This document shows positions 301 through 28,512 of a stretch of 64,000 bases of DNA, in pieces. The position numbers were made by a program, and so were the translations under genes. Origin of the DNA: Octopus vulgaris. Lineage: Eukaryota. The notes under the pieces were generated by a model. That model worked only from the letters and a program-made list of their open reading frames with translations. It did not search any database and was not told the DNA's origin. The number at the start of each line of letters is the position of its first letter. Position 1 is the first letter of the stretch. The DNA lies in contig OX597830.1 of NCBI GenBank assembly GCA_951406725.2, positions 40,858,001 through 40,922,000 of the forward strand, written 5' to 3'.

Positions 301-509
301 CAGAGTGAGAGAGAGAGAGAGCAAAGACAGAGGAAAGATATTATATTTTCTAATGACTCTTGACCATAGCATTTAAGGTCATCATTTATTATATTCCTGT
401 GGTGGTCATCTTGTAGAGAAGAGATATTCAACCCATACATACACACACACAGATGCATGCATGTTCTTCAGCTGCAGATGAATATCATAACTGACCATAT
501 TGCCTTATC

Positions 510-1000
510 AAGTCTCTCTCTCTTTAACTCTTTCTCTCTCAAATATATTTCTTTATCCTTTTCTCTCATTTTTTCACTCACTCCTTCTTTCTCCACTATC
601 CCCATTTTATCACACATACACACACACACACTCTCTCTCTCTCCCTCTCTCACACACACACATACACACAGCTGTTTCTCACACACACTCTCTCCCCTCC
701 ACCCCTCTTGCACACACACTCACACACAGCTCTCTATCTCTCTCCCTTCCCCTCTCTCTCTCACACACACACTGCTCTTTCTATCTCTATCACTCTCTCT
801 CCCTCCCCTCTCTCTCTCTCTCTCACCTCTTTCTCATGCAGGTCTTTTTTTTTTCTCTCTCATATACCTCGATTCCCCTCACCCACTATTTCATTCTGTC
901 ACCCTGTTCTCTCTCCTATCTCTAATTTCATCCCCCTTACCCCCACCCCACCCCGCTCTCTCTTCCTCCCTCCCTCCCTCCCTCCCTTTTTCCCCTTCTC
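510..1000. repeat. CT/CA-rich low-complexity tract
   Basis: Compound (CT)n/(CA)n/(CCCT)n; explains ORFs 457-1116, 500-925 and 708-1025. Confidence 0.9.
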
Positions 1001-1120
1001 TCAATTCAAAATGCACAGAAGATAAATATGCTTTAAATGCTTCTAAAGGAGGAAAGAAGGATGGCAGAGGTTTCCTTTCAGCTTTTTACAAAGTAAATAT
1101 TGATTTTTCTTTTTGATTAA

Positions 1121-1222
1121 GCACAAGGCCAAATTATTTCCCAGTTTTCCCTCAACCCCCAACCCTTTAAAGGAGTGGTAGATATATTGGTTGAATTGAT
1201 TCCAGTGCATATTTCTTCTTCC

Positions 1223-1265
<43 letters not shown>

Positions 1266-1548
1266 CAACAAGGCAGTGAGCTGGTAGAATTGTCACTGTG
1301 CCAGACAAAAACATTTCATGGTATCTCTTCTGGTTTTACGTTCAGAGTTCAAATGTTGCTGAGGTCGAATTTACCTTTCTTTTCCTTCCTTCCAGCAGGG
1401 GCAATGGGGATGGGTTCGATAAAATAAGTACCAGTTGAATACTGGGAGAGGGGGGGGTCAGTATAATTGATTTACCTGCTACTCTGAAATTGCTGGCCTT
1501 GTGTCAAAACTTGAAACCATTATTATTATTATTATCATTATTATTATA

Positions 1549-1589
<41 letters not shown>

Positions 1590-2457
1590 TACGGCAGTGA
1601 GCTGGCCTTGTACCAAAAACTGGAAAGAATTGTTGTTGTTGTTGTTATTATTATTATTATTATTATTAAGGCGGTGAGCTGGTAGAAACGTTAGCACACT
1701 GGGTGAAATGCTTGGCGGTATTTCATCTACTGCTGCGTTCTGAGTTCAAATTCCGCCAAGGTCGACTTTGCCTTTCATCCTTTCGGGGTCAATATACTGG
1801 GGTCAATGTAATTGACTTAATCAGTTTGTCTGTCCTTGTTTGTCCTCTCTGTATTTAGCCCCTTGTGGGTAGTAAAGAAATAGGTATTTCGCCTGTTGCT
1901 ACATCTTGAGTTCAAATTCCACTGAAGTCAACTTTACCTTTCAAGGTTGATAAATTTAGTACCAGTCAGATATTGAGATCAATATAATCAACTTTTGCTT
2001 TCCCCACAAATTTCTGGCCTTATGCCTATGTTAGAAATAATTATAGTTATTATTAAAGAGACAGAGAGGTAGAAGTGTTAGATCGTCCGATGAAACTCTT
2101 TACAGTATTTACTTAGAGAATGTTCTGAGTTCAAATCCTGCAGAGATCAACTTTACCCTTCACTTTCCCAGGGTGCAAAAAACAAAGTACCAGTCAAGTA
2201 CTGGGGTGTATATACTTGATTGTACTCTTCCCAAATTTGAGGCTTTGTACCTGAGGTGAGTGGGCGGGGGAGATGCTTTGCAGTATTTGTTCCTGCTCTT
2301 TCCACTCTGAGTTCAATTCCTGCCAATGTCAACATTGTCTTTCATCATCCCATCTTGGGGTCAATAATATAAAGCACCAGTCAAGTACTGAGGCTAATGC
2401 TATTGACCAAATGTCTTTCCTCAAAATTGCTGGCCTACTGTCTAAATCAGAAGCCAC

Positions 2458-2505
<48 letters not shown>

Positions 2506-2808
2506 CATCATCATCATCATCAGTTTTTCATGTTCTTCTGGGTTATCTATGTCATGTGTCAGCTTTTTACTCAGCATATACACTGTTCTGAAAGGCAGCG
2601 AGCTGGCAGAAATGTTAGCACACTGAGTGAAATGCTTAGTGGCATTTCATCTGTCTTTACATTCTGAGTTCAAATTCCGCCAAGGTTGACTTTGCCTTTC
2701 ATCTTTTCAGGGTTGATAAATTAAGTACCAGTTGTGTACTGGGGTCGATCTAATCAACTGGCCCCCTCCCCAAAAATTTCAGGCCTTGTGCCTAGAGTAG
2801 AAAAGAAA
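1121..2808 (+). mobile_element. Tandem cluster of about 6 family A SINE copies separated by (ATT)n
   Basis: Repeated aaggc(a/g)gtgagctgg(t/c)agaa..ttctgagttcaaattccgcc..gactttgcctttcatcctttcggggtc..aagtaccag at about 1270, 1668, 1885, 2060, 2270 and 2592. The central motif resembles the Meta/MESC SINE domain (from memory, unverified). Confidence 0.85.
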
Positions 2809-2822
2809 GAATACAACCCTCT

Positions 2823-2963
2823 GAGGCTTGATCCTTGCTTCTCAAGAACAAGCTCTGCAAACCAACTCAGTGAAGTACAGCATTAATAAAAGAGCAGAAA
2901 CACCTTTCTGTAGATTATGTGGAAACTTATCAAAAACAGTCAGGCACGTTACTTCCAATGATA
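2823..2963 (+). pseudogene. R4/Dong-clade non-LTR retrotransposon fragment (zinc-knuckle region)
   Basis: Translates GLILASQEQALQTNSVKYSINKRAETPFCRLCGNLSKTVRHVTS, the CxxC..H knuckle that precedes the restriction-like endonuclease (RLE) in R4-clade LINEs. Confidence 0.85.
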
Positions 2964-4230
2964 TCTGGTACTTTTGACTTCTCGTATCAGATTTTTGTGT
3001 TCTTTGAAAAGGTTTCAAGTGTGCCAATCACAATGATTATCACCTTCACTCTCGAGATTCTATGAATAAATTCCACTTCAAAAGCCAGGTTTGGTACCTT
3101 TTGGCTTTCTCATTCTTTGTCTTTACAATATTCTGATCTGCAGGCACCACTATGTCTATGAAGATCTATTGTTTGGTCTCTTCCCATAGGAAAGTAATAT
3201 CTGGTCGATTATTTTACAGCTTCTTATGTGTGCAGATTGGCATAGCCTACGCAAGTTTCTCCTGATCATTCTCTGTGACTGGCAAGGTCTGGTGTTTGCA
3301 CTATTTGTCAGCACACTCCAGCCTGTAACTCCTGCACATTTTCTAGTGTACTTGCTGTGCAACTTCGTCATGGTATTTTCTACATTCCTTCTGGACCAGT
3401 TTTGAACATTGACTAACTACATGCCTAACTACATTCAGACAAATTTCACATACTCTACACAAGAGGTGCTTTCTGCTGGTTTATCAATGCTGTACATCAA
3501 TGTGTTGGTTTCAAAGCTTGTCCTTGATCCACAAGGATCAAGCCTTCTGTTTCCTTCTTTGAAAATCCATGTCTTAACCATCTCCAGGGTTCTTCATCAG
3601 CTACATCTGGTATTGTGGAGGTACGTGGCTTAGTGGTAAGGATGTTGAACTCAAAATCGTAAGATTGTGGTTTCAATCCCTGGATCAAGTGGCACACTGT
3701 GTTCTTGAGCAAAACTTCATTTCACATTGCTCCAGGCCACTCAGCTGGCAAATATGAGTGATCCCGTGAAGGACTGGTGTCTCATCCAGGTGGGGTTTTT
3801 ATACACCATGAAACCGACCCCTAAATGTCAGTATGACTCTAGAAGGTAACTTAACCTTTTCTTTTTACATCTGGTGTGTTTCACAAGCTCTCTGTGTAGG
3901 ACTTTCTCTTTCCAATTGTTGATGTTTTTCCCACAAAAGTCCTCTCATTGTACTTCTAGAGACTCTCTTCATCATCACTAATCACCTCCTCACTCAATGC
4001 AGCCTGCAACATCCATTCATTGCTCAGCCTAAGATAGGCATGCAATGATTTGCTCCCCTTCCTTAGCTCTCCTCTATTCAAATCAATTCTTTTCTTCCTT
4101 CCTTCCTTGGCAGATAAAGCCTTGTTACATTACTTCTAGTTTGAAGGCATCCATGCATAGCGACTATATTTCTAGCTCTTCTGTTCGTGCTGACCAGTTC
4201 CTCCTTTATTCAAACCTCTCAGGAGGGCTC
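2964..4230 (-). pseudogene. Decayed R4/Dong-clade LINE ORF, C-terminal part (post-RT, knuckle, RLE)
   Basis: Minus strand gives KEELVSTNRRARNIVAMHGCLQTRSNVTRLYLPRKE..WKEKVLH..WRWLRHGFSKKETEGLILVDQGQAL..SKLVQKECRKYHDEVAQQVH..NNRPDITF..IFIDIVVPADQNI, with stops and frameshifts; interrupted by a SINE at 3615-3865. Confidence 0.88.
3615..3865 (+). mobile_element. tRNA-derived SINE with V-domain-like tail, inserted in the R4 relic
   Basis: A/B-box head (tggcttagtggt..gtttcaatcc); 10-bp TSD tacatctggt at 3602-3611 and 3866-3875; tail shared with 26704-27017. Confidence 0.85.
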
Positions 4231-26682: not shown

Positions 26683-26703
26683 TGGACATTAAATAATGAC
26701 AGG

Positions 26704-27017
26704 TGAAGGCACATGGCCTAGTGGTTAGAGCAGCGGACTCACGGTCGAGGGATCGTGAGTTCGAATCTTAGACTGGACGATGTGTGTGTTTATATGCTAA
26801 ACACCTAAGCTCCACGTTGCTCCGGGAGAAGGTAGTGGCGAACTTCTGCTGACTATTTCACTACAACTTTCTCTCACTCTTTCCTCCTGCATCTTGCAGC
26901 TCACCTGCGATGGACCGGCGTCCCATCCTGGTGGGGAACCTATACGCCAAGAAACCAGGAAACCGGCCCTTATGAGTCAGGTATGGCTCGAGAAGGAACA
27001 AACAACAACAACAACAA
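26704..27017 (+). mobile_element. tRNA-derived SINE: C head + V-domain-like tail + (AAC)n
   Basis: tggcctagtggttagagcagcggactc..gttcgaatc; cctgcgatggaccggcgtcccatcc; 13-bp TSD aaataatgacagg (26691-26703, 27018-27030). Confidence 0.9.
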
Positions 27018-27059
27018 AAATAATGACAGGATGGGAGTGCTAAGCAGTGATGTGTATAG

Positions 27060-27522
27060 ATGCAATGTCATTAGCAGTTCGGATATACCAATGGCAGGTC
27101 CAAATTCCTAAATAAGCCATTCACTGTGTTTTGTCATAAAGAAAATTTCTCGCTGTAGACAAACAGTGTAAACACACCTAAATCAGCTTGCAGCGCCACC
27201 TATCCAGACTGTGAGATGCAAGCATTTCAGAGCAGTTATCTCCTCTTCAGTCACAGAAACTGGACAGTGGTGTTGTGAACTGATAAGTGAGACAATCTTT
27301 CTTATGTTATGCCAGTCATCATGCATGTTGGGTGGCCATAAATAAATAACAGGGTGGGAGCACTAAACAGTGCATTTCTCAGTCTGGATAGGTGGTGCTG
27401 TGAGCTGATTTAGGTATATTTACACCTGTCTGCAGTGAGAAATTTTCTCCATTACAAAACACAGCAAATGGCTTGAGTTTGAATGTGCCACTGGCATATT
27501 CAAACTGGTAATAACATTGCAT
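27060..27522. repeat. Inverted repeat with ~155-bp arms (27060-27220 / 27371-27522), probable Penelope-like remnant
   Basis: Arms are reverse-complementary (atgcaatgtcattagcagtt / aactggtaataacattgcat; cctaaatcagct..ccacctatccagactg / cagtctggataggtgg..agctgatttagg). Confidence 0.9.
27209..27256 (-). ncRNA. Type I hammerhead ribozyme motif
   Basis: Minus strand reads CTGTGA-CTGAAGA-GGAG-ATAACTG-CTCT-GAAA-TGC-TT-GCA-TC-TCACAG: perfect 6-bp stem I, full core, stem II with a G-U closing pair, near-palindromic stem III, AUC triplet. Confidence 0.8.
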
Positions 27523-28512
27523 TAAATAACGAATAAATGAAAGAATTTACTTCGGAGTGCATTATGTAATGTGTCCCTTCTTAAAATGGACCTTAAAAAG
27601 ATGATAATGATCATCATCATAACCATTATAATCATCATCATGGGGAGGTAGCAAGTTAGCAGAGTTGTTAGAGCTTCAGACAGAATGTGTTTTTGGATAA
27701 CATCAGTGGTATGCAAGGGTGACTGCTCATCTCCTATAAACAACCTTGCCCAGGCTTGTGCCTAGGAGGGAAACTTTCTAGGTGCAATCTCATGGTCATT
27801 CATGACCGAAGGGAGTCCTCTCCTCCTCTGTCTACCCAGTTTTACTCACAAGGTATGAGTAAACTTGAGGCTAAAGGGCTATAGAAAATGATGCTTGCCT
27901 CAGATACCACACAGTGGAATCAAACTGAAGACTTCTCACTTACGAAATGAACTCCTTAACCATGAAGTTATGCATAAAAAAAAAAAAGAGAACAGACTAG
28001 CTGAATACAATTGGAAAATGGATTGATTAAAAGACAGTTCTTAATACAAGAACATGTAAGATGAGGTTAACAGTTCTAAAAACAAATGTAAATTACATAA
28101 ACAAGAACTAATATTCCATAAGTAAAAGCTGCCATTGTTATCATTTGGAAACATGCCAAGCTAAACTGAGTTTTTTTTTTCTGTATTTTTGGCTAAAATA
28201 ATACAAACTAGTTTCCAGAAATTCTTCTCCCAATGTGCCACTGACAAGACATTTTCTTCTAAAGAATTATCAAGAATGTATCAAGAATATACCAAGTACA
28301 ATGTATCTTCAAATATAATGCAAGCTCCTATTTTTTTTAATACTAAAAAAAGGAAAATAGAGAAAAAAAAAATGAAAAGTAAAACAACAGTTATATATTT
28401 CCTCATTCTTTAGATTAAGTATAATGCTACCCTCATCCCAATATTTTGTTCTCTGTTGTTGTGTATTAAATTTCTCATATACAATTAAATATATTACTAT
28501 TATCCAGAGGCT

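Follow-up and report, generated by a model that had tools for sequence, protein, structure and literature searches.

An inverted insertion with a one-sided tail

The window, by which we mean the whole 64,000-nt stretch of Octopus vulgaris DNA analysed here, contains an insertion of two arms in inverted orientation, both derived from a dispersed unit that is 341 nt long as judged from aligned copies. Positions within the unit are numbered from the predicted ribozyme cut, which is set to 0. The first arm (27022..27372, minus strand) runs from unit position -176 to about +191, equivalent to 1.08 units of the 341-nt monomer. It reads through the unit junction, matches the family unit at 89% of aligned columns in a local alignment, and has an internal deletion of roughly 20-30 nt near 27325-27345. 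A Penelope-type tail (27022..27059, minus strand; unit +155 to +191) is present on this arm only. The second, tail-less arm (27371..27523, plus strand) extends from unit -6/-4 to +156 and is joined to the first via a 2-nt microhomology. The inverted copy that a preliminary description placed at 27371-27522 is real, matching 27060-27220 in inverted orientation at 79% over 161 nt (E 6e-34). Moreover, a public contig (run X3) bridges the right-hand junction (27397-27727, with five differing letters and three gaps), and this junction is therefore not an assembly artefact.

A direct repeat was also thought to precede each arm. The repeat is present (27021-27049 and 27345-27372), but it is not a separate sequence in front of each arm: the second member (27345..27372, minus strand) is unit -176 to -150, which corresponds to letters +165 to +191 of the previous unit, and the pair is the terminal redundancy of the 341-nt unit.

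The insertion is flanked by a target site duplication (TSD). The right copy (27520..27532, plus strand) overlaps the arm end by 2-4 nt and matches the left copy (26687..26699, plus strand) at 12 of 13 letters. The left copy was pushed away by the later arrival of a high-copy, SINE-like element (26704..27016, plus strand) with an (AAC)n 3' end, which landed in the tail/TSD region and is bounded by a 14-bp duplication of its own (26690-26703 and 27017-27030; 13 of 14 letters). Automated TSD scoring of the window pair is low because this element lies inside the tail. It has very high depth in public runs and tRNA-like A and B boxes in its head when inspected by eye; ARAGORN found no tRNA there. 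The repeats surrounding the insertion are presumably octopus SINEs. Since the SINE-like element landed within the tail and TSD of the insertion described here, the latter is the older of the two. The window copy is likely dead, and as a dead copy among repeat-rich DNA the locus matters little by itself.

A predicted type I hammerhead in the unit

Read on the minus strand, 27209-27256 has the layout of a type I hammerhead. Its 6-bp stem I is followed by the core CUGAAGA, a 4-bp stem II capped by a 7-nt loop, GAAA, and a stem III that is short and quasi-palindromic, after which comes UC. C17 is base 27215, which predicts a cut between 27215 and 27214 on this strand. All 11 core bases are intact, while the G10.1-C11.1 pair has decayed to G-U, as it has in 16 of 52 copies. 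Around the motif, unit -70 to -47 can pair with +7 to +33 to form an extended stem I (27182..27284, minus strand) of 25 pairs, in which 82.5% of cells are paired across 52 copies.

Rfam does not call a hammerhead in the window motif, either at the gathering score or at E values up to 10, and the minimum-energy fold of the window copy is without stem III. The hammerhead fold has an energy of -5.3 kcal/mol versus -10.0 kcal/mol for the best fold of this copy, and -7.7 versus -8.7 kcal/mol for the family consensus. We accept the motif despite the absence of an Rfam call because pairing across the family supports it. When 52 of the 65 arms spanning -72 to +40 were compared (the 13 omitted were partly second arms from the same locus), 85% of 1968 cells of the named structure were paired, compared with 32-41% in slid controls, and for stem III the figure was 94%. 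Shuffle controls were exceeded in three measures (0-5 of 500) and not in two others. Paired double changes fall short of proof for selection, given the relatedness of the copies and the many changes attributable to CpG decay; indeed, changes on both sides of a stem are largely C-G to U-A, as CpG decay gives. Conservation of the core bases is only slightly above the general level (90.4% versus 86.4% overall). Just 31 of 95 arms keep every one of the 11, and a CCGAAGA variant occurs in 18 of 117 copies at the position concerned. Both the layout and the family pairing thus bear out the hammerhead that had been proposed at 27209-27256 with a cut after 27215, the cut itself being a prediction. A diverged subfamily (L109, L112, L139 and L153) includes some members with a textbook CUGAUGA core and others with CCGAAGA.

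The preliminary description gave stem III a 2-nt loop and predicted from it that cleavage depends on a dimer. An alternative drawing has 3 bp and a CUUG loop, and since CUUG is a stable tetraloop, a monomer may be active as well. In the canonical metazoan type I hammerhead, a weak palindromic helix III is described as favouring dimers (PMC4209133), and the 6-bp and 4-bp helices of the octopus family fit this retrozyme-type form rather than the minimal hammerhead of Penelope-like elements (PLEs) given in the same source. Folded as a circle, the consensus reaches -109.5 kcal/mol, compared with -75.8 +/- 5.3 kcal/mol in shuffles (z -6.3; 0 of 100). Retrozyme circles are likewise reported to be strongly self-paired (PMC7229834), with circularity entering here as a folding model.

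The unit belongs to an old, dispersed, non-coding family

A DNA search of the genome returned at least 128 matches, with 40 of 1413 candidates scored, and a 25-nt motif allowed up to 2 mismatches had at least 351 genome matches compared with 0 for a control. We collected 165 loci, 134 of them distinct; 97 were found via a motif at the 3' end, so that this set is unbiased with respect to 5' ends. Among arms starting upstream of -165, 28 of 29 read cleanly through the +191/-150 junction, and the unit is thus circularly permuted. Stop codons interrupt the consensus in all six frames, making the unit non-coding. The 128 arms of at least 150 nt match the consensus at 75-93% identity, with a median of 86%, and CpG decay is heavy across copies, which together indicate that the family is old.

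Arms longer than one unit make up 33 of 194, a count that includes at least one artefact, and the longest is about 1.7 units. A second ribozyme is reached by 4 of the 194 arms, two of these with large gaps. Neither the 134 loci nor 30 more contained an array with two or more full units. In one locus (L214), two hammerheads flank a full unit that a SINE has split. Its apparent 2.6-unit array proved to be a copy of 1.6 units interrupted by this SINE of about 345 nt, the long span being an aligner artefact, and a similar artefact accounts for the long span of L143. Two other loci (L221 and L151) contain several short head-to-tail pieces of the unit, with +59 to +134 present four times in L221; these resemble the outcome of repeated template jumps or local amplification. 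Local segmental duplications were also encountered, in which the same copy structure recurs 4 kb apart (L037/L038, C3) or 15 kb apart (L226/L227, C28). Flanks shared between loci looked like SINEs in the one group inspected by eye. Short pieces of the family, mostly below 95% likeness, occur in contigs from four runs that we guess to be RNA, and none of these pieces has a joint indicative of a circle, although such contigs cannot show ends or circles. Our literature search found no description of the 341-nt family, which may be catalogued in Repbase or Dfam.

Copy ends follow the pattern of Penelope-type insertion

An adjacent inversion is found at 69 of the 134 loci and is absent from 65. We kept the 44 pairs in which both outer ends fall at +135 to +230 and dropped the remainder. 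In 41 of the 44, one arm ends near +155 and its partner near +190, leaving the tail on one arm only; the tail is missing from both arms in 3 pairs, and no pair has two. The family therefore has two fixed 3' ends, +155 and +191, which are 36 nt apart. The inner (5') ends, by contrast, are scattered from -389 to +154, and at the centre the arms are joined with 0-5 nt of microhomology or with short inserts. TSDs are about 8-14 bp in flanks that are 80% AT. A TSD score of at least 8 was obtained for 17 of 37 pairs with intact ends, compared with 1.4% of 1332 mismatched flank pairs, and the other 20 pairs have no clear TSD. Thus, copies show the features of a PLE-type insertion, namely an inverted, 5'-truncated arm, a tail of 30-40 bp at one end and a TSD in AT-rich DNA. 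An LTR layout was not found in the mapped loci.

These ends bear on the idea that the whole 460-bp palindrome is a TIR MITE that moved as DNA. Two loci (L002 and L003) match the window over the whole structure, as a MITE would predict, yet their centres differ from that of the window and from each other. The ends are asymmetric, the TSDs are long and variable, and 65 of the 134 loci are without an adjacent inversion. A fixed interior, symmetric repeats and a fixed short TSD were all lacking, and the variable centres together with the asymmetric ends refute this scarcely credible alternative.

The two arms of a locus appear to come from one source copy. In 34 pairs, the two arms have 31% of their non-CpG derived variants in common, whereas the figure between loci is 13% (0 of 1000 permutations), and redundant tandem parts within a single arm share 24% compared with 13% (26 arms; 1 of 1000). 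Later gene conversion could also produce, or add to, the sharing between arms. Such sharing would also arise if the second arm were made by fold-back, with the first cDNA priming its own copying, instead of by a second independent priming. Self-priming has been proposed for PLE palindromes (PMC3846280), and at three or four loci (L011, L017, L057 and probably L020) the arms join exactly, +33 to -70, via the 20-nt self-complementary outer part of stem I. This junction is a small hot spot, used in 3-4 of the 44 pairs, at which the stem flanking the ribozyme supplies the microhomology. Most junctions, however, lie away from self-complementary sites. Either arm may be the longer, with the tail-less arm reaching further 5' in about half of the pairs, and no pairing of a long arm with a short one was seen, inner ends and arm lengths being uncorrelated (rho -0.003, 44 pairs). 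We consider fold-back quite improbable as the general route, and it would alter one step only, leaving the classification unchanged.

The ribozyme cut does not set the arm ends

The preliminary description proposed that the inverted arm begins at the cleavage site, and that the locus is a fossil of the reverse transcription of a self-cleaved RNA. If the inverted arm were cDNA that ran off the 5' end of such an RNA, then arm ends should mark the cut. The arm does start near the cut, but its actual start is 4-6 nt upstream. Of the letters at this start, which lies at -6, two are microhomology, and the four that follow include three that agree with unit sequence from upstream of the cut. The 3' product of cleavage would start at +1 and thus was not the template of this arm. 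One further locus (L002) starts, like the window arm, at -4 to -6, and another (L160) at about +2.

Across the family, however, ends show no clustering at the cut. Those inner ends that fall within 6 nt of it number 3 of 88 when all pairs are counted (3.4 expected). In the unbiased set the count is 1 of 52, with 2.2 expected, and for ends of all arms it is 5 of 194 (7.6 expected), where the expectation assumes uniform ends over -110 to +110. Of the three near-cut ends among the 88, one is that of the window copy and another comes from a locus that BLAST had selected because it resembles the window copy. The cut site is crossed by at least 10 nt in 108 of 194 arms. Given that sister copies start anywhere, the proximity of the window arm to the cut is best put down to chance. 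The cleaved-RNA route is accordingly refuted at the level of the family by the lack of excess and by the 108 arms that cross the cut, and it is very unlikely to account for the window copy. The lack of a pile-up agrees with in vitro results for an anole element, in which ribozyme mutants are described as inserting normally and unprocessed RNA as the main substrate (PMC11167929).

No coding partner was found joined to the unit

The genome holds intact open reading frames of 781 aa that combine reverse transcriptase (RT) and GIY-YIG domains. One young PLE family (L196, positions 406-4090, C16; L197) has at least 15 intact 781-aa frames and an upstream 359-aa frame, and a pattern scan found no hammerhead in it; the search for GIY-YIG frames that brought up this family also yielded fragments of others. 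Another PLE family (L200, L201) carries a minimal hammerhead, with core CCGAAGA and no helix III, in inverted pLTRs. We found no nucleotide or translated match between the 341-nt unit and 38 GIY-YIG loci (150 of 6136 candidates scored), and no shared continuation past the tail into an open reading frame among the 134 loci. PLE fragments lie within 1.5 kb of only 2 family loci and are unlinked to the copies. An RT and GIY-YIG frame between pLTRs was present neither in the window nor joined to any copy examined. The suggested link to such a frame thus found no support in the window, in the flanks, or at the 38 GIY-YIG loci.

One explanation that would retain a coding parent is that an autonomous PLE, now extinct or not found, left these copies behind as 5'-truncated pLTR stubs, with the tandem being the usual partial tandem and no independent retrozyme existing. 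Stubs would have the same ends, tail and TSDs. By eye, unit +60 to +191 also resembles a decayed PLE N-terminus. A translated search for this relic, made with one copy and X at stops, gave a single hit to a repetitive, unnamed and unrelated protein and so lends the relic no support. PLEs are also described as forming partial tandems (PMC8557442). Yet in 28 of 29 long arms what lies upstream of -150 is the tail of the unit itself, and never endonuclease sequence; no shared flank leads into an open reading frame; and the hammerhead has the canonical helices of 6 bp and 4 bp rather than the minimal PLE form (PMC4209133). Together, these observations make the stub explanation unlikely.

A model for insertion

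We conclude, with a probability of roughly 0.8, that the window contains one old insertion of a dispersed, non-coding 341-nt unit with a hammerhead motif, an animal non-LTR retrozyme, which was likely inserted by the RT and GIY-YIG endonuclease of a PLE acting in trans. The earlier suggestion of a small, non-coding, retrozyme-like element is therefore upheld by the family unit, the conserved hammerhead motif and the Penelope-type inverted layout. Its further suggestion of a self-cleaved template is not, as ends are random relative to the cut and the window arm extends 4-6 nt past it on the upstream side.

Because arms run through the cut and do not pile up there, the template is likely an uncut multimer or a religated circle. 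Insertion could then proceed as follows. A PLE endonuclease would nick both DNA strands, about 11-13 nt apart, and each nick would prime cDNA synthesis at one of two start sites within RNA derived from a single source copy. The two cDNAs would run 5'-ward, often past the ribozyme site and the unit junction, stop at random, and then be joined, with microhomology at the join. The template in such a scheme would be the uncut multimer or religated circle and not the linear cleaved product, and the ribozyme would act upstream of insertion, cutting multimers into units for circularisation. In the window, the SINE landed later in the tail of the copy. We lean toward a circle over a linear multimer, as arms of more than one unit are common and arrays of two full units were not seen, although this is not proof.

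A more specific and tentative version, to which we give somewhat less than even odds, is that the copies record a dimer of the PLE enzyme copying one small RNA circle from two fixed start sites, one per nicked strand, and joining the cDNAs where they stop. If true, this would explain the head-to-head-plus-tail structure of Penelope elements in general, and would tie retrozyme circles directly to the PLE reverse transcriptase.

Comparison with known retrozymes and Penelope-like elements

The window copy is an ordinary, aged member of an element type that is already known. It has a predicted type I hammerhead with three helices, a unit within about 150-400 nt and a TSD longer than 4 bp, as expected of a non-LTR retrozyme. 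Like the metazoan non-LTR retrozymes described by Cervera and de la Pena (2020; PMC7229834), the octopus family has a non-coding unit in the range of 170-400 nt (350-390 in mussel), a canonical type I hammerhead, low GC, long TSDs and, in a fold model, strong circular self-pairing. Unlike them, the octopus copies are dispersed, 5'-truncated, mostly shorter than 1.7 units and often head-to-head, with no long arrays seen; the family is old (median 86% and best 93% to the consensus).

Insertions of endonuclease-bearing (EN+) PLEs, as described by Arkhipova (2013; PMC3846280), Craig (2021; PMC8557442) and Frangieh (2024; PMC11167929), share with the octopus copies head-to-head arms, a 36-nt tail on one arm and a TSD, as well as AT-rich targets, microhomology at the joins, read-through of the ribozyme site, and a hammerhead located some 150-190 nt before the 3' ends. 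The first two of these sources give the PLE layout as an inverted pLTR, a tail of 30-40 bp and a TSD of 8-10 bp (PMC3846280, PMC8557442), and in the anole element the tail is the interval between two start sites of reverse transcription (PMC11167929). In contrast to EN+ PLEs, the octopus unit is without an open reading frame, its tail loops straight back to its own upstream part, and its hammerhead is canonical and not of the minimal type. The family also shows that the RNA being inserted is not the cleaved linear form, which fits what was found in vitro with the anole element (PMC11167929).

A partnership between retrozymes and PLEs has already been proposed (PMC7229834; preprint 10.64898/2026.07.22.740005). 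In that preprint, Li, Clavereau and Pollet (2026) present animal retrozymes as non-autonomous PLE derivatives, a case built, mainly in vertebrates, on co-occurrence and the phylogeny of pLTRs. Its main text nowhere uses the word 'tail', and the evidence from insertion scars in octopus is thus not part of that text. To this proposed partnership, the octopus family adds a tail rule followed by 41 of 44 pairs, TSDs, and arms that share one source.
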